From: a phage
Reading direction: 5' to 3' (one strand)
Length of the DNA stretch: 46,837 nucleotides
Sequence record: PZ502447.1
Below, piece by piece: positions 4,128 to 39,800 of the stretch (the first letter of the stretch is position 1; the number at the start of each line of letters is the position of its first letter). Under the pieces are notes generated by a model. It was not told the origin of the DNA. It worked only from the letters and a program-made list of their open reading frames with translations, and searched no databases. The position numbers were made by a program, and so were the translations under genes.

Positions 4128-4212
4128 TCTTTATTGTTCCTTTTCAGTTAGGTGTCTACGGATTCATTATACACGAGTTTTTAGCCCACGCAATGGTGTG
4201 GTGGATAGCAAT

Positions 4213-4234
4213 AAAAAAACCTCCCGAAGGAGGC
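4213..4234 (-). terminator. intrinsic terminator
   Basis: Minus-strand hairpin CCUCC-UUCG-GGAGG followed by a U7 run (plus-strand A-run 4213-4219), 3' of ORF 4254..4727. Confidence 0.55.
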
Positions 4235-8300: not shown

Positions 8301-8347
8301 ACTATAAGCCATCCTTGGCGGCGCGTCTTTAGCAAAACGTGCTATTT
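8301..8347 (-). promoter_or_regulatory. conserved promoter module (inverted-repeat motif plus -10-like TATAGT)
   Basis: Minus-strand AATAGCACGTTTTGCTAAAGAC, then about 22 nt, then TTATAGT, then leader ACGAAAACGAGAGG, then ATG of 7919..8272; overlaps the terminase large subunit stop. Confidence 0.5.
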
Positions 8348-9915: not shown

Positions 9916-10422
9916 TTACGCTCTCGTATTTGGGTAGCCTTTATTTTCAGAGCCATGATTTTCATGATATCCGTTCAATTTGTCATACTGTGACCTTGCC
10001 AATGCAGCCTCCTCTATAGTGTCCTTGTAGCATATGAAGACTGTTTTACCAAACTCCATAGCCTGAACAAGCCATCTATTCTCTCTTTTGCACCAGCTTA
10101 CACCGTTTATTCCGCTTTTATTTCTTGATGATAGTGATCTGTTATTTGAGTTCTCTTTATTGCTTACTAACCTTAGGTTCTCTATTCTATTGTCACTTCT
10201 ATTTTGGTTTATGTGATCTATGTACATGCCTTTAGGGATTGATCCATTGTGCATCTCCCACACCACCCTGTGACACCTGTATGCTTTTTGTCTATACTTT
10301 AGTATCACATAGCCAAATTTATCAACTCTTCCAGCCACCTCTCCAACCTTTGATACATTTGCTACTTTTACCTTTCTTATTAAAAGCCCGTCTCTATATT
10401 CAAAAATATCATGCCAATTCAT
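9916..10422 (-). CDS. HNH homing endonuclease (AP2-HNH type)
   Basis: 168 aa; HNH core IDHINQNRSDNRIENLR; N-terminus MNWHDIFEYRDG shared with the HNH at 28006; strongly AT-rich; inserted between the terminase subunit genes. Confidence 0.85.
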   Translation of the reverse strand: MNWHDIFEYRDGLLIRKVKVANVSKVGEVAGRVDKFGYVILKYRQKAYRCHRVVWEMHNGSIPKGMYIDHINQNRSDNRIENLRLVSNKENSNNRSLSSRNKSGINGVSWCKRENRWLVQAMEFGKTVFICYKDTIEEAALARSQYDKLNGYHENHGSENKGYPNTRA

Positions 10423-11680: not shown

Positions 11681-11756
11681 TGGTGTTCCGCACTGGACTC
11701 GAACCAGTAACTAAGACTTAGGAGGTCTTTGCGTTATCCTGTTACGCCAGCAGAAC
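11681..11756 (-). tRNA. tRNA-Arg (anticodon CCU)
   Basis: 76 nt on minus strand folds as a cloverleaf: acceptor GUUCUGC/GCGGAAC (one G-U), U8, D-stem GCGU/ACGC with GG in the D-loop, anticodon stem AAGAC/GUCUU, loop CUCCUAA (U33, CCU, A37), T-arm ACUGG-UUCGAGU-CCAGU, discriminator A, encoded CCA. Confidence 0.8.
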
Positions 11757-12145: not shown

Positions 12146-12348
12146 AACTCCTCAGTTATAAGCATCTTGCCACAATCTTTGCACTCGTAGAACGCACATG
12201 TTTCACCTATTGATACAATTGGTTTTGTTGACTCGTGGTATGCAGAGCTTATCGCCTTAATGTCAAAATCGTTAATGATTGATGTGAACACGTAAATGTA
12301 ATGATGTTTGTGATTATTGTCGTTATCACTCATAAAGGCTATTCCCAT
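12142..12348 (-). CDS. hypothetical protein
   Basis: 68 aa ORF, Cys-rich C-terminus (CAFYECKDCGK); its first 8 codons and RBS are duplicated at 12454-12485. Confidence 0.45.
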   Translation of the reverse strand: MGIAFMSDNDNNHKHHYIYVFTSIINDFDIKAISSAYHESTKPIVSIGETCAFYECKDCGKMLITEEF

Positions 12349-12357
12349 TCTCTAACC

Positions 12358-12473
12358 TAATTCAATGTAAATATGAAGAAAATCATCCCAATTGCCGTAG
12401 CCATAGCCAATCCGATGGCGATCAGAGTTAGTACTAAATCAATGATAATATCACTCATAAAGGCTATTCCCAT
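12358..12473 (-). CDS. small hydrophobic protein (38 aa, predicted membrane)
   Basis: Hand-translated ORF MGIAFMSDIIIDLVLTLIAIGLAMATAIGMIFFIFTLN, below the ORF-track size cutoff; shares its start module with 12142..12348. Confidence 0.35.
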
Positions 12474-12687
12474 TCTCATCATGACCCACACGCCCTCGAC
12501 GATAGCCCGCTATCCACACAAACTTATCACGTGCGATTATCGTGGATACCGGCCCCCATATCTGAGTGATAAGCGCCGCAACAACCTTATCATCTTTCTT
12601 TTTTGCGCCCAATTTGCCGTATTCGTCATTCAGCTTGTCAGCCTGTCGCTTAACTGCGTTAAAGTATGCGTCGTCTAACCCGAACAT
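12451..12687 (-). CDS. hypothetical protein
   Basis: 78 aa ORF, ATG with GAGAGG SD located in a conserved leader downstream of a promoter module. Confidence 0.5.
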   Translation of the reverse strand: MFGLDDAYFNAVKRQADKLNDEYGKLGAKKKDDKVVAALITQIWGPVSTIIARDKFVWIAGYRRGRVGHDENGNSLYE

Positions 12688-15362: not shown

Positions 15363-15884
15363 CTATTTAGTCTCCTTAATCATTTCTTGGTATGCGTTAA
15401 TCATTGATACTGCACCATTAAGTTCATCACCTTCAAGACCAGCGACGCTTGGTGATAGTTTTAACAATCGAGCCTTGAACCTTTCAATGGTAGCCGCCTC
15501 CTTCTCTTGCTCTGCTTTGCTTCTTGAGCCGGATTTTACAGCGCCAGGAACCAGGCTAAGTGATGCGCAGTATGTCTCACTCTCGCCCTCAAAGTCGGTA
15601 AAACTAAGTGAGAACCTTGAGCGCACGTCAGCCGCCTTAATCTCAGGCATTCGGCTTACGGTGTTTGAAACGTATGACGCTTTTAGTTTTGGCATGTGGT
15701 ATTCACCACCAGGTAGAACCTCCTCACCACTTAGCGATACGAACGTCTCACGACTCATGCCGAAGTATTGACGAGCAATCATGGTCACAGGGACTGTGCA
15801 CACTTTGTCTTCTGACTTGAGCGCCTGACTCGCCATGTATCGAATGATTTCACCCAAACTTACTGCTTCTTTATGTTCTGACAT
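15363..15884 (-). CDS. hypothetical protein (first leftward early gene)
   Basis: 173 aa ORF, ATG with AGGAG SD, first gene transcribed leftward from the large control region. Confidence 0.55.
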   Translation of the reverse strand: MSEHKEAVSLGEIIRYMASQALKSEDKVCTVPVTMIARQYFGMSRETFVSLSGEEVLPGGEYHMPKLKASYVSNTVSRMPEIKAADVRSRFSLSFTDFEGESETYCASLSLVPGAVKSGSRSKAEQEKEAATIERFKARLLKLSPSVAGLEGDELNGAVSMINAYQEMIKETK

Positions 15885-15974
15885 ATTCGTTACTCCTGAT
15901 TGGTTGCTCTTCGTTAAGATGAAACCATGGTATCATGAATATACGCGTTATCAAGTGTTATGTTGTGTTTATAT

Positions 15975-16030
15975 CTGCATTGGTTACGCTTTTTGACCTC
16001 TCAGCCCAGCTATAGCTGGTGTAATTACCC
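15975..16030. repeat. duplicated control-region block 1 (copy A) with perfect palindrome CCAGCTATAGCTGG
   Basis: ATTGGTTACGCTTTTTGAC...GCCCAGCTATAGCTGG; near-identical block at 35223-35280. The 14 bp perfect palindrome is at 16006-16019. Confidence 0.6.
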
Positions 16031-16145
16031 TGTGTAAGATTTTACGCGGATTCGCCGGGGGTATGCATATGTATCTATATAGATAAAATTAGTAGTTTTC
16101 ATAGAAAAACTATCGACCCATCCATACGACCAATCTACACCATAT

Positions 16146-16212
16146 ACATACATATATATAATAATAATAATAATATAGTAAAAGGTTGATATATATAGAT
16201 ATTATTATGTAA
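16146..16212. repeat. duplicated control-region block 2 (copy A) with (TAA)n microsatellite
   Basis: ATATATATAATAATAATAATA...AGTAAAAGGTTGATATATATAGATATT..ATGTAAC; near-identical block at 35404-35468, at the same roughly 120 bp spacing from block 1. Confidence 0.6.
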
Positions 16213-16483
16213 CCATTGCGTAATCTCGCGTGGTAGGCGTGTATGATTCTTCGGAAGCGCACCTCATATACACACCATAACTTCGATAACGTGTATATCC
16301 AAATTGGCTCAGCAAGAATCAAAATCAACTTGTATGGTAGTTCATCCACCATTCATTCACCCCACATCAATCATTGCAAATTCTGCAACAATCAAAAACA
16401 TCATTGCATTCCATGCAATATTGCTATATGTGCAATAATCATGATAATCATTGCAATAGCTGCAACAATAGATAAATCCAACG

Positions 16484-16556
16484 AATAGCACTTTTTGCTA
16501 ATGACAAAAACTGGCGACGAGGCCATAATGAATCCATCAACAACGAGGAGAGAGAT
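16484..16556 (+). promoter_or_regulatory. conserved promoter module for rightward early operon
   Basis: AATAGCACTTTTTGCTAATGAC, then CATAAT, then leader CCATCAACAACGAGGAGAGAG, then ATG at 16557. Confidence 0.55.
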
Positions 16557-16742
16557 ATGAAACTTAAAGACGAAGCATTTGAGCAATTAAAGCAGGAATG
16601 TGCGCTGATTGGATTGAACAGTGACTATACTGATATGGTTTTACGCGGACGCATCGATATCGACCTTGCTAAGCAATTCCAGTCAGATGATGAATATCTG
16701 TGCTGCGATGGCCTCGGCTGCGACGAATGTTTACCATGGTAA
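16557..16742 (+). CDS. hypothetical protein (Cys-rich C-terminus)
   Basis: 61 aa, ATG with GGAGAGAG SD; C-terminal CCDGLGCDEC cluster suggests a metal-binding mini-domain. Confidence 0.5.
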   Translation: MKLKDEAFEQLKQECALIGLNSDYTDMVLRGRIDIDLAKQFQSDDEYLCCDGLGCDECLPW

Positions 16743-18150: not shown

Positions 18151-19734
18151 ATGTTTGATTTCAACGAAGATAAACTATCTGTTGAGCAGGTTATGGCAAT
18201 CGCTGCCAATGACAACCTACCACCGCTTCGCGTGGCTATTAATGCCAATGGCTATCGACAGTCTCAATCGTTCTGGAAAGCACCTGTCGAGATTGATACA
18301 GGTAATGATAAGTATCCAGTAATCTCACTCGGTAATGATATTGATGTTGTTGGTAAGCTATCGGCTAATATCGCTCGCTCGGTTCAGTTCCCTGAGTCGT
18401 CAGCTTACATGCACTTTCTTGGTTGTGTTTCTGCTGCAATGCTTGGGCGTTTTACTGTCGAGTATCATGGAACCCAACAGCCAACATCTTTGTACGTGGT
18501 AACAAGTCAGCCGCCTTCAACTGGTAAATCAGCCATTAACTCGCTATCAATCGCGCCGATGATTGCTGAGACTGAGCGGTTGAATGAAGTACGTAAACGT
18601 GATCGAAAAAAGATTATGGCTAAACTGTCCGCTCTGGCTAAAGAGATGAAGCAGGAGAAATCACCTTCTGAAATGGCTTCACTTTTTGAGGAGAAGGATG
18701 ATTTAGAGGAGAAGCTCGAGAAGCTATGCGATATAGTATTCCCGGTTTCCGATACTACTCCGGAAGGTCTTGCGCGAATCAACAATCGCCAGGGTAATTT
18801 TGCGGTAATCTCTGATGAGGCTACTAGCGTCAACTCACTGTTAGGCATGACTTACGGTGATGGCTCGAAGAAAACGAACAGCGAGCTCGTGCTGAAAGCA
18901 TGGGATGCAGGTAATGTGTCAATTGCCCGTGCGAACGCAGAAAATAACATGAGCTTTGTGGCTATGGGATGCATCTCCGTAATTGCTCAGGATGAAACAA
19001 TCAATGCCATTATGAATGCTGGTGCGCGTGGTATTGGTGTATCTGAGCGTTTCCTTCTGGTGCGCGAAAAGTCATTCCTTGGCGACCGCGTATTTGTTGA
19101 TGCTAATGGTGATTCAACATACGAGGCTATTGATGGCGGCCTGAAAGCGGACTACTTCCGTCTTGTTCATGAGATTATGAATGAAGTAGAGGTTAAGCTA
19201 ACAGTAAGCGCATCATCAATGCGTTACCTTAACCGAGCACGTCAGGAGATGGAGCCTCATCTTGGTGATGGTGGCAAGTATTCTCACACAATGTTGCGCG
19301 GTGCTCTTGGTAAGTTTGATAAGCAAGCAATCCGCATCGCTTCCGTACTTCACGTTATTCGTAACTGGTCCTCACAAACTGGCTCTAGCCCGCAGAAGTC
19401 CAGAGAGATTGAACTGGAGACAATGCAGGAGGCAGTTATGATTTTCAACGAGCTAAGCAAGACGTATTTGTCATCAGCTAGTGCTGCTGGTCATGCTGGT
19501 GACAATGCCGAGATGAACAAGCTGGTTGATATCCTGATTAAGCAGGGCAAGAATGGTAAAGGTGTTGTTGGTGTTCGCTCGTTGTATGAGGCTGCACGCA
19601 AGGTTAAACCTTTTGAAGCTCAGGCTGGAATTATGACTCGCATTAAGGACCACTTGATTCCTATGCTTGATGAGAAAAACTACACATGCCTGATTGGTGA
19701 TAAAATTTACATTAATCCACGATTGCTGGGGTAA
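18151..19734 (+). CDS. P-loop NTPase, possibly replication-associated
   Basis: 527 aa; Walker A-like PPSTGKSA and Walker B-like FAVISDE; largest gene of the rightward early operon. Exact family not recognised. Confidence 0.45.
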   Translation: MFDFNEDKLSVEQVMAIAANDNLPPLRVAINANGYRQSQSFWKAPVEIDTGNDKYPVISLGNDIDVVGKLSANIARSVQFPESSAYMHFLGCVSAAMLGRFTVEYHGTQQPTSLYVVTSQPPSTGKSAINSLSIAPMIAETERLNEVRKRDRKKIMAKLSALAKEMKQEKSPSEMASLFEEKDDLEEKLEKLCDIVFPVSDTTPEGLARINNRQGNFAVISDEATSVNSLLGMTYGDGSKKTNSELVLKAWDAGNVSIARANAENNMSFVAMGCISVIAQDETINAIMNAGARGIGVSERFLLVREKSFLGDRVFVDANGDSTYEAIDGGLKADYFRLVHEIMNEVEVKLTVSASSMRYLNRARQEMEPHLGDGGKYSHTMLRGALGKFDKQAIRIASVLHVIRNWSSQTGSSPQKSREIELETMQEAVMIFNELSKTYLSSASAAGHAGDNAEMNKLVDILIKQGKNGKGVVGVRSLYEAARKVKPFEAQAGIMTRIKDHLIPMLDEKNYTCLIGDKIYINPRLLG

Positions 19735-27480: not shown

Positions 27481-27954
27481 ATGTGTGAAATTGACAAGCG
27501 AACTATCAACGGCAATAACGGAACCATCCGCACGCAAGACAAGAAACAGCGCAAACGACCGTCAGGCTACTACGTATTGAAAGATGAAGTAAAGGCTGGG
27601 CTACGAGCTCGTCTGGAGATGGTTCTTGATTTCTACGGCACGAAGGCCAATATCGCCAAGCAGTTAAATGTATCTCACCAGACTGTAGAGCAATGGTTTG
27701 ATCGCGGGATGATTTCGGCTCGAGGTGCCCAGAGGGCTCACAATGCATACAAGCGAAATAAGGAAGGCTTTAGAGCTACGTTCTGCCGACCAGACCTGCA
27801 ATTCGACGGAAACGGTAAGCCATTAACGCTTAGATGCAAGAAACGCCATATGCTGCGGGTTGTTACAGAAGCTGAACTAGCAACAAAGCCACCATGTCGA
27901 CCATGGCGCAAGAATAAGATTGCCAACGAAGCAGCACGAAAAGCTAAAGATTAA
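27481..27954 (+). CDS. HTH DNA-binding protein (putative transcriptional regulator)
   Basis: 157 aa, ATG with GAGGTAA SD; helix-turn-helix-like segment TKANIAKQLNVSHQTVEQWFDRG; basic N- and C-termini. Confidence 0.5.
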   Translation: MCEIDKRTINGNNGTIRTQDKKQRKRPSGYYVLKDEVKAGLRARLEMVLDFYGTKANIAKQLNVSHQTVEQWFDRGMISARGAQRAHNAYKRNKEGFRATFCRPDLQFDGNGKPLTLRCKKRHMLRVVTEAELATKPPCRPWRKNKIANEAARKAKD

Positions 27955-28005: not shown

Positions 28006-28485
28006 ATGAACTGGCATGATTATTTTTACTATGTAGATGGCAAATTGCATTGGAAGATTAGCACTGCAAGACGTGTTAAGGTTGGCGATGAGTGCAACTC
28101 ACTATCTACATCTGGCTATTACAAAGTGTCTGTTAATGGCTTTAGGACTTATGTACATAGAGTTGTGTGGGAGATGTTTAATGGAGAACTTCAAAATGGC
28201 GACTACATTGATCATATAAACCATAACAAATTAGATAACAGAATAGAAAACCTAAGAGTAACAACAAATCAAGGTAACTCAAGAAATTGCAAGCTTAGCG
28301 TTTTATCAACAACTGGTTATTGTGGAGTAGCAAAGCTAAATCACGGAAAATTTAAGGCTCACATCAAGGTTGACGGTAAGCAGCTACACCTTGGGAACTT
28401 CGATACTCCAGAGCAGGCGTATAAAGTAAGAATTGAAGCAGAGAGAAAATGCAACTTTCACGAAAATCACGGGTTAAGCAAATGA
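28006..28485 (+). CDS. HNH homing endonuclease (AP2-HNH type)
   Basis: 159 aa; IDHINHNKLDNRIENLR HNH core; N-terminus MNWHDYFYYVDGKLHWK paralogous to the HNH at 9916; inserted directly upstream of primase with an ATGA overlap. Confidence 0.85.
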   Translation: MNWHDYFYYVDGKLHWKISTARRVKVGDECNSLSTSGYYKVSVNGFRTYVHRVVWEMFNGELQNGDYIDHINHNKLDNRIENLRVTTNQGNSRNCKLSVLSTTGYCGVAKLNHGKFKAHIKVDGKQLHLGNFDTPEQAYKVRIEAERKCNFHENHGLSK

Positions 28486-29405
28486 ATTACGATAAGAATG
28501 AAGTTATACCTAAGATGGCCGGATTGTGGAAATCATTTTATGCAAAGGAACTTGGTTGGAATGATAGACACCTAAGTAAGAAGCACGGACCATGCCCATA
28601 CTGCTTTGGCACTGACAGATTCAGATTTACCGACGAAATAGGCAGTGAAAAAGGGAATGGCGCGGCAGTTTGTTCGAAATGCGGAAGTGACTCCGGTATA
28701 GGATGGGTCATGAAGTGCACTGGATCGTCCTTCGCAGATTCAGTAAATTTGCTTGGTGACTGGCTGAACTTAACACCAATTGAGGTTATAGTTAAAGCAA
28801 ACAAGCAAGCATCAAGAACCCAGCTCTACAAAATGGGCGCCCAGATTGACCACGAAAGATGTTTAGAGATTATGGAAAGAACAGAAAGAGTAGAATCAAC
28901 TCCACTCAGTATATACGAGGGTATCTATAGCGAATTTGGTTTTGATGTTGGCAGGACGAAATCAGGCGAACTAATACACGCAGTACCGTGCTTTATGGCT
29001 TATAGTGACGGCATATCAGATGATATGTGCAATGTAATGTTTATCAATGAAGATGGAGATGTTAGCTATGCTGCAAAAGATTATACTCGCCAGTCTGTTT
29101 CTATTATTGGCACCTTTAAAGATGATGAGTACGCTTATCTGGTCGATAATTGGATTGATGGTGTTCGCGTTCATCTTGCTACTGGAAATCGCTGCGTGCT
29201 TGTTTGCCACTCCAGCTACAACATGGAAATGGTTGCTTATGCGCTTATGAACTACAAGTTACGCGTCGCTTGTACTCGCAACTCTTTTGATTTACTTGCC
29301 GTTGCTGACGATCGCAATCTTGATATTGTAATTCCAAATGATGGTAATTTTTTCAAGTCAGGCATAAGAAAGAGAATATACAAGGCAAACGAATTACTAG
29401 ACTAA
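28482..29405 (+). CDS. DNA primase (zinc-finger type)
   Basis: CxxC...CxxC zinc-binding motif (CPYCFG...CSKCGS) near the N-terminus. Start placed at ATG MNYDKNEV overlapping the HNH stop; the ORF track starts it 33 nt earlier. Confidence 0.55.
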   Translation: MNYDKNEVIPKMAGLWKSFYAKELGWNDRHLSKKHGPCPYCFGTDRFRFTDEIGSEKGNGAAVCSKCGSDSGIGWVMKCTGSSFADSVNLLGDWLNLTPIEVIVKANKQASRTQLYKMGAQIDHERCLEIMERTERVESTPLSIYEGIYSEFGFDVGRTKSGELIHAVPCFMAYSDGISDDMCNVMFINEDGDVSYAAKDYTRQSVSIIGTFKDDEYAYLVDNWIDGVRVHLATGNRCVLVCHSSYNMEMVAYALMNYKLRVACTRNSFDLLAVADDRNLDIVIPNDGNFFKSGIRKRIYKANELLD

Positions 29406-29426
29406 CCTCCTTCGGGAGGTTTTTTT
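29406..29426 (+). terminator. intrinsic terminator after primase
   Basis: Hairpin CCUCC-UUCG-GGAGG followed by a U7 run, immediately after the primase stop. Confidence 0.65.
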
Positions 29427-29492
29427 ATACCTGAAAGATGATACAATCCACTTTAGCAATTAGTGCTACTTTACAAATGGAGACTTTACACA

Positions 29493-32021: not shown

Positions 32022-32026
32022 AAAAA

Positions 32027-32050
32027 GCCCCGAAAGGGGCTTTATCTTTT
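32027..32050. terminator. bidirectional intrinsic terminator
   Basis: Hairpin GCCCC-GAAA-GGGGC flanked by an A-run upstream and a T-run downstream; between the plus-strand stop at 32021 and the minus-strand stop at 32052. Confidence 0.65.
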
Positions 32051-32051
32051 A

Positions 32052-32537
32052 TCAGTAGTAAAGATGTTCCGCTTGCTTTCTTGCCTTTAATGCGGACTCA
32101 AACGTTTCGAATCGTCCTAGATGTATTTTTCTACCGTTTACAGTTATGGACGCATCGTATTTTCCCTTATTAAAATGTACACCACCGCACCCCGTCTTAT
32201 TGTTTACTCTTACACCTAAATTGTGCATGTTGCCTGTTCTGTTGGTTTTCAGTAGGTTTGCGTAGGCATTATTTGCTCTATTCCTGTCAATATGGTCAAT
32301 TTCAATATCACCACTCAAAGAACCTTCAACGAAGGCAACCGCAAGCCTGTGAGCTTGGAATCGCTCTCCGTTGATGTTTATGCCTATGTATCCATTCCTA
32401 AGCGAACCTGAATTCGAACCTACATCTACACGCCGCGATGTGGGAATAATCCATGAAAAGATCCCTGATTCTGTACCGTAGGATAGGTGACGCATTGCTG
32501 CGTCAACCACATCTTTTGTTATGTCTTTGTATTTCAT
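32052..32537 (-). CDS. HNH homing endonuclease
   Basis: 161 aa; IDHIDRNRANN HNH core and NKTGCGGVHFNKGKYDASITVNGRKIHLGRFETFESA AP2-like tail. Confidence 0.8.
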   Translation of the reverse strand: MKYKDITKDVVDAAMRHLSYGTESGIFSWIIPTSRRVDVGSNSGSLRNGYIGININGERFQAHRLAVAFVEGSLSGDIEIDHIDRNRANNAYANLLKTNRTGNMHNLGVRVNNKTGCGGVHFNKGKYDASITVNGRKIHLGRFETFESALKARKQAEHLYY

Positions 32538-33009: not shown

Positions 33010-33660
33010 TTAGAATGTATCGATTTCTTGAGATTGCACTTCAACTTTTTCTTCTTGAACAGACTTTTGTGCAACCTGCTTAGGTTTTGCTGGGTTAAAG
33101 CCATTAGTTGCATTGGCCTGAATCTCTGCCTTGCGCTCGATAATGTGAGGCTCAAGCACTAACCAGCCGGCTGAATCAAGTGACTGCTTCGCCTCTTTGT
33201 AAACATCACGGAGGTCATCAAGAGTACTGCACTTAGCCAAGTCTTTCTTGAATGAGTTGATGCCTTTAACTGCTAACTGACCATCATCATCTGCCTGGCT
33301 TAAACCTAACGCCGCTGTGATTGCGTAACGGCGAGCGTATGTAAGTGATGACCCATAACCTTGAGCATCTTGCTTACTGATTGGGACTATGGTCAGGAAA
33401 CTAACCCACTCTCCAGATTCTGCATGGTAAACTGTTGTTTCAACCTTAATACGAGTGCTTACATCATCATCAATCATCGACTGAAACATCACCAGTCCGC
33501 TATCAGCCAATCCTGGCTCTACAGCTGCTAAAACATCATCTAAAGTAGCGTACTTATTCTTGAGGTGTGAGTTCTGCTTAGACTTTTCAGCCTTAGCAAA
33601 CTTTGATTTAGCCTCGAATAACGCCTTCAATACTTGCTTGTTTTGCTCAGAAGTTTTCAT
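33010..33660 (-). CDS. erf: Erf-family single-strand annealing protein
   Basis: About 216 aa from ATG MKTSEQ (GGGGA SD; the ORF-track start is a GTG inside the promoter -10). Erf-like core ATLDDVLAAVEPGLADSGL. Confidence 0.7.
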   Translation of the reverse strand: MKTSEQNKQVLKALFEAKSKFAKAEKSKQNSHLKNKYATLDDVLAAVEPGLADSGLVMFQSMIDDDVSTRIKVETTVYHAESGEWVSFLTIVPISKQDAQGYGSSLTYARRYAITAALGLSQADDDGQLAVKGINSFKKDLAKCSTLDDLRDVYKEAKQSLDSAGWLVLEPHIIERKAEIQANATNGFNPAKPKQVAQKSVQEEKVEVQSQEIDTF

Positions 33661-33737
33661 TCCCCATCTCTCTTTCGTTTCGATGGGGTAATGATACCCC
33701 ACCTGTTAATTTTGTCTTTAGCAATTAGTGCTATTTT
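33661..33737 (-). promoter_or_regulatory. conserved promoter module for recombination genes
   Basis: Minus-strand AATAGCACTAATTGCTAAAGAC, 22 nt, TATCAT, then leader CCCATCGAAACGAAAGAGAG, then ATG of erf; overlaps the exonuclease 3' end. Confidence 0.55.
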
Positions 33738-34702
33738 AGAAGTTCTTGATACTGCTTACTTACCCACTCAGGAATCATCAAATCTTGCTCTGTAATCCCA
33801 TTACTATATCCAGGCCAAACATCAAGCTCCTTACACTGCTTGTATGTTGCCAGCGCCTCACAATATTGTAAGCGCCCAATGCGAAGTTGCTCATCTGTAA
33901 GCGTGTAGCACATAGGTAAGTATGGCTCAGTTTTCTCCTGCGCCAGGAGTCGAACCACAACCTTACGCTTCTCGCTAAATGCCTTCACGAACAAGTCACG
34001 CTGAAGGCTCATTTTGCACAGGTATCCATGGTCATAAGCTGACTTGCCAAATCCTCTCGGGCTTGCGTCCGCCGTCGTCTTGTAGTCAGTAATGAAAACC
34101 ACGCCATCAACAACATCCACGTGATCAAGCCTAACCTTAACACCACACCCAAGAATCTCACCAAAGATTGATAGCTCTTTCTGTGCTGTTGGTGAGTTAA
34201 TAATCGCATCGTAAGCTGGGATATTAGTCAGAACCTCGCGCATTGAGATTACCTTATCGTAATCTTTCGCAGTAACGAGCTCTTTGCCACTAATCAACGC
34301 CTCAGCGCTCTCCTGCTGCTCAATTAACCATTTAACAGGCCAATCCTCACCACACTTATACATCATCTCTACAAGCTCGTTATAACCCTTCCCTGACGTG
34401 CCTGAAACTCCAACTTTTTTAAGCGCTGCGGATAAAGCCGTTTGGCTAGTAATCAATCCTTCCACTTCGTCAAAGTCAGTAGCTCGCATGTATGTTGAGT
34501 CAAACACCTCGCGCTCTAGCATCATGCAGTGACTTAGTGTGCCAAACTTAAGTGCTGCGCTAGAGTTATTGCGCTGCTTAAACTTCCATTTAGCTGGTGA
34601 GGTAGCAAGAATCTCAGCCAGTGAAGAGCCAGAGATATGGTCTTGCTCTTCGTGATAGGATTCATTTGTTAGCTCGTCGTTCGTATAAACTTTAAATGTC
34701 AT
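33731..34702 (-). CDS. PD-(D/E)XK exonuclease (recombination exonuclease)
   Basis: 323 aa; nuclease core around VVFITDYKT (D..DYK); upstream partner of erf and ssb in one leftward operon. Confidence 0.65.
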   Translation of the reverse strand: MTFKVYTNDELTNESYHEEQDHISGSSLAEILATSPAKWKFKQRNNSSAALKFGTLSHCMMLEREVFDSTYMRATDFDEVEGLITSQTALSAALKKVGVSGTSGKGYNELVEMMYKCGEDWPVKWLIEQQESAEALISGKELVTAKDYDKVISMREVLTNIPAYDAIINSPTAQKELSIFGEILGCGVKVRLDHVDVVDGVVFITDYKTTADASPRGFGKSAYDHGYLCKMSLQRDLFVKAFSEKRKVVVRLLAQEKTEPYLPMCYTLTDEQLRIGRLQYCEALATYKQCKELDVWPGYSNGITEQDLMIPEWVSKQYQELLK

Positions 34703-34705
34703 GGT

Positions 34706-34900
34706 TCAATCCTTAATTTTAACAATCTTAATAGCTTTCAAATCTTCTTCAGTGAAGTATCCTGTCAGCAACTCCTTGGCCTCTTCCTTTGTCTCGAATT
34801 GGTCGGCTTCAGATTTGTTGGTAGTGTATCCGGCTGGGCCACCAAAGTAGCAATCGCCGAACAGTGCGTTGTTTTTCTCTTTAATTATGAAGTATGGCAT
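34706..34900 (-). CDS. hypothetical protein
   Basis: 64 aa ORF upstream of the exonuclease gene. Confidence 0.4.
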   Translation of the reverse strand: MPYFIIKEKNNALFGDCYFGGPAGYTTNKSEADQFETKEEAKELLTGYFTEEDLKAIKIVKIKD

Positions 34901-34904
34901 GATT

Positions 34905-35090
34905 TTATCCCTTAATGACTTTGATGTGTTCTGATGTTGTCTTTTCTATCCTTGCGCCAGTTTTCTCCCATTGTTTACCGTATGATAATTCGCAAAATCT
35001 AAAAGCCATGTCATACGTAAGGAATATAGCGATAGGTGAATACGTTGGTAGTATTACTGTATGCGCTTTCAATTTATCAGGCATTTTCAT
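34905..35090 (-). CDS. hypothetical protein
   Basis: 61 aa ORF, first gene leftward from control region B; upstream CATCATT plus leader GCATCGAAAGAAAAC. Confidence 0.45.
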   Translation of the reverse strand: MKMPDKLKAHTVILPTYSPIAIFLTYDMAFRFCELSYGKQWEKTGARIEKTTSEHIKVIKG

Positions 35091-35222
35091 TACTCTATCT
35101 CTCTACGGTTGTTTTCTTTCGATGCGTTAATGATGCCGCACGCAAGACACACAGTCCAATTGGTATCACCGATTAATTAATCAAGTATACGCGTATAAAT
35201 CCGTAACTACGTGTAGACATTT

Positions 35223-35280
35223 CTATTGGTTACGTTTTTCACTGCCTTAGCCCAGCTATAGCTCAATGTAAATGGTGCGT
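35223..35280. repeat. duplicated control-region block 1 (copy B)
   Basis: ATTGGTTACGTTTTTCAC...GCCCAGCTATAGCT, matching 15975-16030 (the palindrome is partly degenerate here). Confidence 0.6.
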
Positions 35281-35403
35281 ATATCGTGTATACCGATCTT
35301 GGCGGATGGTGCATAGGTATGGGTGCCGCGCAATACTGTATAAAATCACATGATATAAAAATTATAACCGGAACACTCAAGAACAGTAGTTACATGATAT
35401 ACA

Positions 35404-35468
35404 CAGTAATATATATAATAATAATAATAAGAGTAAAAGGTTGATATATATAGATATTTTAATGTAAC
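35404..35468. repeat. duplicated control-region block 2 (copy B) with (TAA)n microsatellite
   Basis: ATATATAATAATAATAATAAGAGTAAAAGGTTGATATATATAGATATTTTAATGTAAC, matching 16146-16212. Confidence 0.6.
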
Positions 35469-35554
35469 TATGGCGTATCAAGGCGTAACTAGGCGTATAC
35501 GATTTCCCGCGGATGCATATGGTATACATCGAGTTACATCGGTTACGTGTAACC

Positions 35555-35640
35555 AATAGCACGAATAGCTAAAGACAAAGATTATAGATGATGTATGATT
35601 ACTCCATCGAAACGAAATGCTCATTATAAGGAACAAGAAA
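35555..35640 (+). promoter_or_regulatory. conserved promoter module for rightward lipoprotein operon
   Basis: AATAGCACGAATAGCTAAAGAC, 22 nt, TATGAT, then leader CCATCGAAACGAAA, then AAGGAA SD and ATG at 35641. Confidence 0.55.
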
Positions 35641-35886
35641 ATGACTAACTTAATCAAACTTTCAATCATCGCCGCAGCAGCAATCATGATGGTAGGTTGT
35701 TCTTCTGCTCCGCGACCAGACGGATGGTGTGCAACGCAAGCAAACGGCGTGTGCGTGGCTAAATGGGAAAATGGTGTGGTTGTACCGTCTGGTGAAGTTG
35801 ATGTGCGATACGCTGGTATTGAGAGCAAGGCTGGCGGCGGTTACGGTGGCTCTGTTGCTGACCATGGGTCTAAGGAGTGGAAATAA
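35641..35886 (+). CDS. small lipoprotein, candidate Cor-like superinfection exclusion protein
   Basis: 81 aa from ATG MTNLIK (AAGGAA SD); signal peptide ending in lipobox-like MVGC; Gly-rich mature part; located beside the J/receptor-recognition region as cor genes are in related phages. Confidence 0.5.
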
Positions 35887-36848: not shown

Positions 36849-36855
36849 AAGAAAA

Positions 36856-36871
36856 GGCCCCGAAAGGGGCC
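36856..36871. terminator. bidirectional terminator hairpin between convergent genes
   Basis: GGCCCC-GAAA-GGGGCC; the minus-strand side is followed by UUUUCUUUU (3' of J); the plus side has a weaker T tract. Confidence 0.55.
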
Positions 36872-36878
36872 TAATCAT

Positions 36879-39800
36879 TTACCACACTCCAACTACAACC
36901 CTTCCACCATTCGGTAAATTAACTGTAATTCCATTATTGTTAATCTGAACAGTGTTGTTGGTTCCGTTAAACGCAAAGTTGCCGTTACTTGCGTACAGAC
37001 TACCCCTTACAGTTGCATTGTTAAGTTCCGCACTGCCTGACTTATCAATGGCCCAACCCTGAGAACCAGCCACGTAGTTATTAGATTGAATCCGGTTACC
37101 AATCTTCGCGTTAGTGATTGAACCATCCTGAATCACTGCGCTTTGAATGAATACCTGATTACCTTCAACTACGAAAGGCAATGACCACTGACCGGATCCA
37201 GAGCTAATGCCGTTACTGATTGCGAACCTGTTAGCATCGAAAATGAACTGACTACGAACGTTGCCACCAGATCCGGTTAGTTCCATGCTCATCCCTGAAT
37301 TGTACTCAACCCCATTGTAAGTAAGACCCAGCTTAATGCCGTACTGCGCACCAATTGAATCAGCTGTAACGTAAGTATCCAGCTTCTCATTTAAAGCAGC
37401 TTCATTCTCACCGAGCCTTGCAGATAAAGCAGTGTCCGCAGTGGTCCTTGCTTGCGTTTCTTCCGCTAGCGCCGTATCAATCCTTGTCAACGAAGCCACA
37501 ATCTCATCATCAATCTGCGCTTTAAGCTGCGTCAGAGCCTCTACGCGAGCCATTTCTTCGTCGGCGATAAGATTCACAGCCTGAACAAATTCGGCCTTCC
37601 TCTTGCCGTTTTCCTTCGTCATTCTACGCACGTCACCATCATTAGCCAGGGCGTTCTCAATTATTGATTCCGCTTGCGCCTGAATAGCTCCGTTTGACTC
37701 AATGGCATTCTGTTGGAGATACTTGAACCCATCTGAGTTTTCTATATCAACCTTAATATCACCAATGATTGACGACACATCATCGCTTGCCATACCCCTT
37801 ACAAAATCAGTCCATGGTGAGACGTTACCAATCTTGTCAATCAGTCGCGCCCTGTACCAGATAACCTTTCCTGCCGGTAATGTAGTGTGCCAATACTCGT
37901 AACCCGGGTAAGGAACTAGCGTTAACAAACTGGCGTTCTCTGGTGAGTAAGTACCATCACCATTGTCGGCTACTTGCTGCAATTCAGTGTATGACGTATC
38001 GGCTGAGTTTTCAGGGAAACCCCACTTAACCCTAATGCCAAATATTTCATCATCTGAAGCTGTGATTACCGTAGGCTCAGACGGCGTTCCAATTTTACCA
38101 GTTAGGCTTGCTGAAACAATGTCAGACCATGCGGATACGTTTTCAGTATCAGAAACAGCCCTCACGCGAACCTGATAAATACCAGCATAAATACCTTCAA
38201 TATCAACTTCTGTGTTTGCTGTGCGCGGTACGTTAATCCAGTTTCCGTTCTCCTTACGCCACTGTACCGTGTAAGTCTTGGCGTACTGAACTTTGTCCCA
38301 GGTGATTACCATTGTTTCAACTGATAAACCCTGCACAACCTTGCTGTAGCTGCTCACCTGAACATTTTCTGGGGCAAGTAGCGTGTCAGGTTCAACGATT
38401 GACGATGGCCTATCCTGAATGTTTACGCCGTAATCAATTTCGTCGTATTTATTCGGGTCGTACTCGACTGCCGTAATGCTGTAACCGAACGCATCGTCTC
38501 CATCGCTGTCTGCTTTTTGAATCCCGGTCACAACATATTGCTGAAGAGCAAGATTTTCCTTATCAATCGCAAATACTGTGTCAGGCTGAGGAGTAAAGCT
38601 AAACGCTGTATTAAGTTGCAGCGTCATACCATCTTCAGATACAGATGCAATGGTCCTGTACTCTGGCATTCCATCAGGCTTGTTTATTAGAATCCTGTCG
38701 CCAGCAGTAGCATCAATCTTAAATGGCACAAAAACTTGCAACCCACTTACTGACTCGATACGACCAGAAAGGTTAAGGGTGTAGTTGCTAGACCATGCCT
38801 GGTCATTAACTGCAATAACCTCACCAATCATTGGAATCATACCTTCCAGACCAGTAGTGAAACTAATAGTCTCGCTGCGAATGTTCGTCTTTAATAACCA
38901 GCGCCCGCGGCGGTTTGCCTCACTCCTGCGAGTACATCCAATAGCTGTAAGGTCGACCGGGTTGTAACCAAAACGCCTTGTTGCCTCTAACTCGAATACT
39001 GGCTCAACATCCTGTTGGTATGAGTTTTCAACGTCATCAAACTGAACGTTGGCAACCGTGTAAAGTGACTTATCGCTACCAAATGTACGGTTGAACAATC
39101 CATCAACAACGTTGTCATTGGTGAATACGTACGATGGTTGACGCGGCTTATCGACAACAATCCCTATCTGCTCGCCGTCATAGAATGTCAGCCCACGGAA
39201 GATAGAGCAAATATCACGGATTACCTGATATGCTTCAACTTTCTGCTGAATGACAACATCACACAGGTAGCGCGGCTCAACTCCACCCTTACCATCTGGA
39301 ACCATCTGGTCACAGAATTGCGCCGCCTCATACAGACCCCACTTATCAATAGTAATGCCAAGCTCTCGCTGGTCAAGTCCGTAACGCTGATTCGTCACCA
39401 AGTCGTAAAGAACCCACGCCGGGTTATTGGAATACGCCATCTTAAAGGTGCCGTTCCAGGTTCCGCTGTAAGTCCTTGTCTCTGGGTTGTAGTTAGTTGG
39501 AACGCGAATCAACTTCCACTTCTTCTTGATTGAAATCGTCGGGATTCCGTTAGGGAAGAGGTCAGAACTGAACTCAACGTAAACCAGCGCTGTAAGTGGG
39601 TAGCGGAATTTAGCATCAATTACTTCCTGATAGGTCGTAATTTGCATGTCGTTAACCAGCGTCGAACTTTCTGAATCTGCCGTGATCTTACGAACCCTCA
39701 CCAACGCACTCGAGAACTCAGCAGGAAGGTTAACCCTGATACTTCTGTCGTACCCGCTAGTTGTCTTGCCATTAGCTACTCCGCGCGTGTACTCAGTGTA

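Follow-up and report, generated by a model that had tools for sequence, protein, structure and literature searches.

The helicase of the P4 alpha protein is of the superfamily 3 (SF3) type, and the deposited P4 record annotates TGTTCACC repeats in both of the cis sites ori and crr. SPP1 uses a dedicated protein, G38P, to bind its replication origins, and that system has a separate loader and a DnaB-type helicase. The two SPP1 origins, oriL and oriR, lie 32 kb apart (PMC3561973). The Rep proteins of Staphylococcus aureus pathogenicity islands (SaPIs) are self-loading initiator-helicases, one class of which is minichromosome maintenance (MCM)-like, and their C-terminal winged helix reads iterons of 5–6 nucleotides (nt) (PMC9371898). 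A SaPI origin has 6–12 of these iterons; an AT-rich region in the middle divides them, leaving no fewer than two to either side, and the two sides are oppositely oriented (PMC9371898). Here we describe two direct copies of a non-coding element, about 19 kb apart, in a stretch of 46,837 nt of phage DNA (record PZ502447.1; the whole stretch is hereafter referred to as the window). Element A lies in region A (15885–16556) and element B in region B (35091–35616). The pair is conserved in every clade tested of the phage family Drexlerviridae, and sequence comparison gives about an even prospect that the two are twin cis-acting replication origins, or an origin and a second required cis site.

Megablast placed the window in the Drexlerviridae, subfamily Braunvirinae (Rtp-like coliphages), with 99% identity to Escherichia phages ES and AN_ECEAS around region A. 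The family includes T1, one of the seven classical T phages, whose relatives often turn up as contaminants in laboratories and are candidates for therapy. The published genome analyses of TLS and SU57 identified no replication origin. The core sequence strings described below were not found in the literature searched; the T1 and Rtp genome papers were outside that search, and an earlier mention is possible there. A family-conserved pair of sharply bounded, ~200-bp origin-like elements, together with a predicted MCM-like helicase, narrows the origin question.

An earlier note on this DNA had reported a gap of about 670 bp between divergent operons, holding two blocks that recur with similar spacing at a second site. 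The gap measures 672 bp (region A, 15885–16556), and the blocks do recur, collinear and on the same strand in A and B and 115–143 bp apart. BLASTN of region A against region B aligned block 2 over 82 nt at 87.8% identity (E = 2.5e-23) and block 1 over 40 nt at 85% identity (E = 3.3e-7), and a global alignment revealed that the homology is wider than the two blocks, in collinear islands spanning ~350–400 bp. An nhmmer profile built from 17 copies from other phages, with the window and its near twin left out, matched the window exactly twice, both times on the plus strand, at 35394–35579 (E = 1e-50) and 16141–16341 (E = 2e-42). The two direct copies of one non-coding element are real. The (TAA)5 tract that had been noted lies at 16159–16173 and 35416–35430, and AGTAAAAGGTTGATATATATAGATATT is found in both copies. 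The 14-bp palindrome CCAGCTATAGCTGG is present at 16006–16019, as described, but it is perfect in copy A only; copy B and the relatives keep a 10-bp core, AGCTATAGCT, which is missing from region A of IME542. The 'palindromic operator' proposed on its basis is thus not a conserved feature.

We calculated nearest-neighbour duplex stability in 60-bp stretches for seven genomes: the window, Rtp, IME542 and JulesPiccard (Braunvirinae), T1 (Tunavirinae), TLS (Tempevirinae) and Klebsiella phage KP36 (Webervirus). In all seven, the two least stable stretches are the cores of the pair (z 5.0–6.0; third 3.4–4.8), one core lying in the pac-proximal untranslated region by the DUF7174 gene and the other upstream of exoVIII/recE. 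The corresponding stretches of the window are 16148–16208 (z 5.6) and 35407–35467 (z 5.2), the third reaching z 3.4. The two elements resemble each other within each relative, over 123 nt (83% identity) in Rtp, 116 nt (84%) in IME542, 90 nt (86%) in JulesPiccard, 88 nt (78%) in T1, 37 nt (84%) in TLS and 132 nt (86%, E = 1e-35) in KP36. Furthermore, five of nine IMG/VR contigs contain two same-strand occurrences of an exact core 20-mer, indicating that the copies are direct repeats there too. The statement that both copies mark a switch of the transcribed strand is true for the window and false for TLS (tspJ then recE) and KP36 (primase then exoVIII), in which the genes around element B lie on one strand; the element therefore tracks the position upstream of the recombination operon and not divergence as such.

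Element B (35381–35555) is 87–89% identical to its counterparts in Rtp, IME542 and JulesPiccard, which represent three other genera; for element A the figure is 79–84%. For comparison, the genome mean is ~76%, and identities are 80–84% for the major capsid gene, 70–80% for the large terminase gene and 80–86% for the helicases; by this measure element B is more conserved than the capsid or terminase genes. A 176-nt element B query retrieved 135 phage records at a coverage of at least 80%, most of them 87–97% identical, and in many phages megablast matches the element alone and not the flanking genes. We do not claim that A and B evolve in concert within a genome; TLS is suggestive of it (57 bits, against at most 50 for any cross-clade pair) and T1 ambiguous.

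An alignment of eight copies, followed by inspection of 21 unique copies, revealed a shared order of parts. In the window orientation, a left-flank motif, ACAYGMTATACA, recognised by eye in Braunvirinae, T1 and TLS, is followed by TATATA(TAA)n, AGTAAAAGGTTGATATATATAGATATT, TGTAAC and three GCGTA units, and then by a small inverted repeat of the TTCCGCGGAA type and GTATAC / GTTAC units. The GCGTA units are kept at a period of 9–11 bp in the 21 unique copies, while the spacers differ between phages. The (TAA)n tract varies from four to seven units among copies, a variation that an unwinding element tolerates and a fixed promoter spacer would not.

Unbiased k-mer counts, with the AT core masked for the four Braunvirinae genomes, revealed short repeats concentrated in the two regions. 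In KP36, 13 of the 19 genomic GTAAGAT sites lie there (0.44 expected), in arrays with ~10 bp spacing on both sides of the core, and element B alone has ten sites in a mirror arrangement. T1 has six TGTWACA sites in the two regions and none elsewhere in 48.8 kb, and TLS has four of its eight TGTTCAC sites there. Across the four Braunvirinae genomes, GTATACA occurs 12 times in regions A and B and five times elsewhere (130-fold enrichment), and ATGTAAC is enriched 61-fold. The repeats nearest to the core point outwards, the left one leftward and the right one rightward, in 9 of 14 elements, matching the hallmark described for SaPI origins (PMC9371898). In copy B of the window, GTTAC lies at −18 and GTAAC at +7 and +28, accompanied by three GCGTA units and GTATAC sites; its left side is sparse.

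The candidate initiator is the DUF3987 protein (18151–19734, plus strand), whose operon begins at element A. A model based on 31 homologues (pLDDT 89, pTM 0.87) predicts an AAA+ helicase of the MCM-like, pre-sensor-II-insert type, with a winged helix at its C terminus (residues ~446–527); in the alignment, the Walker A (G125-K126-S127) and Walker B (D281-E282) residues do not vary. Such a helicase is unusual for a lytic coliphage; it is conserved across the Drexlerviridae and annotated only as 'DNA helicase / DUF3987'. When clades that differ in their repeats are compared, divergence is greatest in the winged helix (35–56% identity, compared with 58–78% for the AAA+ core), which is weakly consistent with a role for this domain in reading the repeats. 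A primase with a Zn-ribbon of the primase-helicase type (28449–29405, plus strand) is a candidate partner of the helicase. Its Zn-ribbon is 41% identical to residues 28–81 of P4 alpha (E = 9e-11), and this was the only match in a BLASTP search of P4 alpha against the window proteins, the DUF3987 protein having no similarity to it beyond chance.

We read the elements as putative origins because the pair is conserved in all clades tested, the cores are the least stable stretches, oriented repeats flank them and a candidate initiator-helicase is encoded. Each element would comprise an easily melted AT-rich core of ~57 bp flanked by lineage-specific short repeats, acting as iterons. The DUF3987 helicase would recognise these repeats through its C-terminal winged helix, assemble on either side of the core and, once the core melts, load itself; the Zn-ribbon primase and the host polymerase would then begin bidirectional synthesis. 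The elements would act as twin origins, or as an origin and a second required site, in a scheme like those of SaPI Rep and P4 alpha. A far more ambitious version, which we consider improbable, holds that all Drexlerviridae, including T1, use the conserved origin pair together with a self-loading, MCM-like helicase, its winged helix co-evolving with the lineage-specific repeats, that the two copies act jointly (by pairing like that of P4 ori and crr, or by 19-kb looping), that the start of replication is coupled to the early operons and pac, and that (TAA)n is a single-strand landing track for the AAA+ ring.

Several observations weigh against an origin function. Because both elements precede early operons, their position would suit a role in transcription just as well. 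Neither element adjoins the helicase or primase genes, the distance to the helicase gene being 1.6 kb for element A, which lies upstream of it, and ~15 kb for element B, whereas SaPI and lambda origins abut or lie within the initiator gene. The repeats of the window lineage are short and degenerate, copy A having few on its left, and the faster divergence of the C-terminal domain is weak evidence for the putative link between winged helix and repeats. Moreover, other candidate readers of the repeats are encoded, namely a Cro-like helix-turn-helix (HTH) protein (27481–27954) and the DUF7174 protein (15363–15884). The cumulative GC/AT skew merely follows the coding strand and the direction of transcription and thus says nothing about origins. 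As for a DnaA-type origin, the window contains 69 one-mismatch TTWTNCACA boxes against 115 expected, which lends it no support; regions A and B have three boxes each, none clustered by either core, and the likeness of (TAA)n to the DnaA-trio consensus is formal only.

The main rival, unlikely in our view but a serious contender, sees the elements as a hub of early transcription, that is, as the operator or enhancer regions of the DUF7174 and exoVIII-Erf-SSB operons. Early transcription would be toggled, much as through lambda OL/OR, by an early phage protein that binds the repeats, with the Cro-like HTH protein and DUF7174 as candidates, and the AT-rich core would serve as a promoter region or UP-element. 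Each element indeed lies, in all genomes compared, upstream of an operon that is leftward in the window orientation, and two deposited relatives carry in-silico promoter annotations within the core. The repeats rarely occur outside the two regions, which recalls the lambda operators, and a Cro-like HTH protein is encoded, identified by sub-threshold Pfam matches; a comparison with the Protein Data Bank (PDB) returned nothing significant for it. Region A also has a strong leftward promoter for the DUF7174 operon (15927–15954, minus strand; TTGATA-16-TACCAT, TG-extended), which scores 11.4, among the top eight of the window, overlaps a shared island, TATACGCGT (15940–15948; 35186–35194 in copy B), and is conserved in Rtp as TTGATA-16-TAATAT. 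This sole strong promoter of region A, however, is ~200 bp outside the core. Sigma-70 consensus and position weight matrix scans found no conserved strong promoter in the cores, where the best scores are a mediocre 8.2–8.4 and the matches in A and B agree neither in strand nor in position; 125 sites in the window score at least 8. Repeated operators overlapping conserved sigma-70 early promoters, as in lambda OL/OR, were found neither in nor beside the cores. In addition, the cores lie 200–330 bp from gene starts, the rightward genes have their own adjacent putative promoters formed by a 21-nt repeat, the number of (TAA) units is variable, and an operator needs neither extreme duplex instability nor outward-pointing repeats on both sides. 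Of the two functions that the earlier note had offered, origin or promoter hub, comparative anatomy thus favours the origin, and the hub is weakened by the mediocre and unconserved promoter matches. If the elements were nonetheless master switches of early transcription, this would be equally new for the Drexlerviridae.

A packaging or recombination site, with the elements related to pac or serving as recombination hot spots, is a distinctly poorer candidate. Region A corresponds to the untranslated region at the junction of the conventional T1 and Rtp genome ends, and region B to the gap between cor/lipoprotein and exoVIII. Copy A is ~250 bp from the conventional genome end, several deposited records begin or finish inside region A, position 1 of T1 is a few hundred base pairs from core A, and copy B abuts recombination genes. 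Restriction mapping in the older T1 literature reportedly gives a single pac site. The authors of the SU57 paper assigned pac to the untranslated region that corresponds to region A. A better fit to pac than the elements themselves is a separate set of four palindromic ATTGCA-N5-TGCAA(Y) units at 16372–16466 (CATTGCAAATTCTGCAAC, CATTGCATTCCATGCAAT, TATTGCTATATGTGCAAT and CATTGCAATAGCTGCAAC), near the conventional record ends of T1 and Rtp, which is confined to region A and has no counterpart in copy B. These units are 81–89% conserved, similar ones are visible by eye in T1 and KP36, and they may be pac or small-terminase binding sites. The suggestion that the direct copies mediate recombination found nothing in its favour: the longest exact run they share is ~27 nt, and a deletion between them would be lethal, taking out ~19 kb with the helicase, primase, lysis and recombination genes.

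An Rfam scan of the whole window returned a tRNA only, and nothing in A or B. RNAalifold on the 21 unique copies (270 columns) gave −4.3 and −1.9 kcal/mol for the two strands, a negligible consensus fold energy that argues against a structured RNA. The mechanical open reading frames (ORFs) of A and B are broken by stops or frame breaks in the relatives and have noise-level Pfam matches only, and the cores hold no conserved ORF; the left part of region B (35093–35293, including block 1) is not simply ORF-free because it holds the leader and the degenerate 5′ half of an rtp46-like gene. Hardly credible, finally, are a small non-coding RNA, given the missing Rfam match and a consensus fold of about −4 kcal/mol at most on either strand, a leader peptide gene, whose mini-ORF (TTG ATA TAT ATA GAT ATT (T/A)TN ATG TAA) can be read in the core but has no usable ribosome-binding spacing, and a functionless relic of an old segmental duplication, which would explain why the homology takes in the apparent start of a neighbouring gene in block 1 but not a conservation above that of core genes or the retention of the pair in every clade tested.

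Region A lies between divergent ORFs at 15363–15884 (minus strand) and 16557–16742 (plus strand). The former is the DUF7174 gene, whose product has a winged-helix-like model, and the latter begins a rightward operon of small ORFs leading into the DUF3987 'helicase' gene. Block 1 of copy A (15979–16019) is non-coding and consists of ATTGGTTACGC, a GCGTAAC-type repeat, then 16 nt and AGCCCAGCTATAGCTGG, which contains the 14-bp palindrome; in region A this block is present in Rtp and JulesPiccard and absent from IME542. The left flank of core A (16134–16151) reads TCTACACCATATACATAC, a degenerate version of ACAYGMTATACA. Core A (16152–16208) is ~90% A+T and comprises the (TAA)5 tract and GGTTGATATATATAGATATT. 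On its right, phased repeats on the plus strand (16209–16245) start with GTAACC and continue with three GCGT(A/G) units 9–11 bp apart. The distal right flank (16246–16300) has a small inverted repeat, CTTC-G-GAAG (16246–16259), and then ATATACACA...AACGTGTATATCC (16266–16300); this flank aligns with TTTCCGCGGA and GTATAC/GTTAC in other copies.

Region B lies between a leftward recombination operon, with genes for exonuclease VIII (33731–34702) and Erf (33010–33702) and also described as exoVIII-Erf-SSB, and a rightward lipoprotein gene (35617–35886). Block 1 of copy B (35225–35263) consists of ATTGGTTACGT, 14 nt and AGCCCAGCTATAGCT, which contains the 10-bp palindrome. The left flank of core B (35389–35406, minus strand) has GTTACATGATATACACAG as its innermost repeat, directed away from the core. 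Core B (35407–35463) is ~89% A+T, again with (TAA)5 and GGTTGATATATATAGATATT. The phased repeats to its right (35464–35501, plus strand) are GTAACT and then GGCGTATCAA, GGCGTAACTA and GGCGTATACG, with a 10-bp period, and the distal right flank (35502–35554) comprises ATTTCCCGCGGATG (35502–35515) and GGTATACATCGAGTTACATCGGTTACGTGTAACC (35521–35554). At 35334–35351, upstream of the recombination operon, TACTGTATAAAATCACAT matches the left half of a LexA box (TACTGTATA) perfectly, its right half being defective (ACAT instead of ACAG); the relatives retain this half box in their B-type copies.

The rtp46-like gene (34706–35293, minus strand) is split in the window and is a single ORF of ~115–130 residues in Rtp, IME542 and JulesPiccard. 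A tblastn search revealed that 35293–35093 is homologous to the N-terminal half of the relatives' protein, with a stop at 35207 in the window, and the C-terminal half survives as a separate ORF of 64 residues (34706–34900). A 180-nt insert in the gene carries an ORF of 61 residues (34905–35090), which has no family match, and a leader-like CATCGAAAG. In the relatives, block 1 directly precedes the rtp46-like start codon, and its similarity to copy A, which has no ORF at this point, continues into codons 1–8. Block 1 of copy B sits in the leader and first codons of the degenerate gene.

Other repeats occur elsewhere in the window. A 21-nt repeat, ATAGCACnnnTTGCTAAAGAC (0.07 copies expected), is present in ten copies, at 8325, 12740, 13876, 16485, 17298, 21524, 24952, 29449, 33714 and 35556, oriented with transcription and ~60–80 nt before a start codon. 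In most copies a variable hairpin comes next, followed by the leader CATCGAAACGAAA, and the layout reads as a sigma-70 promoter (−35 AAGACA, 16–17 nt, −10 TATnAT) behind a TAGCA-N5-TGCTA palindrome. The TLS paper described a 21-nt repeat of T1-like phages (aaATAGCACnnnTTGnTAAAA) and left its function an open question (PMC11447400). Like the A/B pair, this is a conserved non-coding repeat of the Drexlerviridae, and one copy lies at the right edge of each region (16485–16505 and 35556–35576); unlike the pair, from which it is separate, it is not based on an AT core. A perfect 29-nt direct repeat, TATCACTCATAAAGGCTATTCCCATTCTC, at 12324–12352 and 12449–12477 (125 bp apart) lies at the 5′ end of each of two neighbouring small ORFs on the minus strand, whose start region is apparently identical. 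A 127-nt inverted repeat (10146–10272 and 28156–28282) is 72% complementary; its second arm lies inside an HNH_3 endonuclease ORF (28006–28485) and its first overlaps ORF 9916–10422. If the latter also encodes an HNH endonuclease, the two would be paralogous homing-endonuclease genes on opposite strands. The tRNA gene found by Rfam is at 11684–11756 on the minus strand (58.9 bits); JulesPiccard has a tRNA-Arg (AGA) annotated among its small early ORFs, and the SU57 authors likewise list a putative tRNA-Arg gene. Near-identical GC-rich hairpin terminators, some of them bidirectional, recur at several operon ends (4211–4233 and 29406–29428; 32022–32054 and 36852–36884), for example AAAAAACCTCCCGAAGGAGG and AAAAAGCCCCGAAAGGGGC.

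Among the known systems, lambda OL/OR resembles the pair in having two related clusters of repeated protein-binding sites that head early operons. The lambda sites, however, are 17-bp pseudo-palindromes overlapping promoters, whereas the elements described here have a ~57-bp AT core, 5–7-nt repeats and no conserved overlapping promoter. SPP1 is likewise a lytic siphovirus that packages by the headful (pac) mechanism and has origins at two distant sites, but there is no homology of sites or proteins. P4, the nearest precedent for a pair of separated cis sites, repeats one short sequence in ori and crr, in either orientation and around AT-rich DNA. Its TGTTCACC is almost the same as the TLS repeat TGTTCAC(G), and the primase Zn-ribbons are homologous. 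In contrast, the window repeats are GTAAC / GTATAC / GCGTA, P4 alpha combines primase, helicase and DNA binding in one fused polypeptide, and crr is a tandem 120-bp duplication and not a second full origin copy.

In logic, the SaPI origin comes closest to the elements: both have an AT-rich centre and short repeats (5–7 nt) that point in opposite directions on its two sides. This layout is clear in element B of KP36; in the window the left side is sparse in copy B and degenerate in copy A. SaPI Rep is an AAA+ helicase with a C-terminal winged helix, with one MCM-like (SF6) class, a fold that the window protein shares in its predicted model, and the primase is a separate or fused partner. The SaPI origin, by contrast, is single and immediately downstream of rep, whereas here two copies lie 19 kb apart with neither by the helicase gene; the repeats are without sequence homology, and host and element type differ, a lytic coliphage here and a Gram-positive (S. 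aureus) satellite there. If the origin reading holds, a lytic coliphage family would join the self-loading initiator-helicase systems that have been studied so far in SaPIs, staphylococcal cassette chromosome mec (SCCmec) and P4. Taken together, these comparisons suggest that each copy is an origin-like element that probably works like a SaPI or P4 origin, which we do not file as a member of either family because the elements are not beside the helicase gene, their repeats differ from those of P4 and the helicase is not alpha-like.

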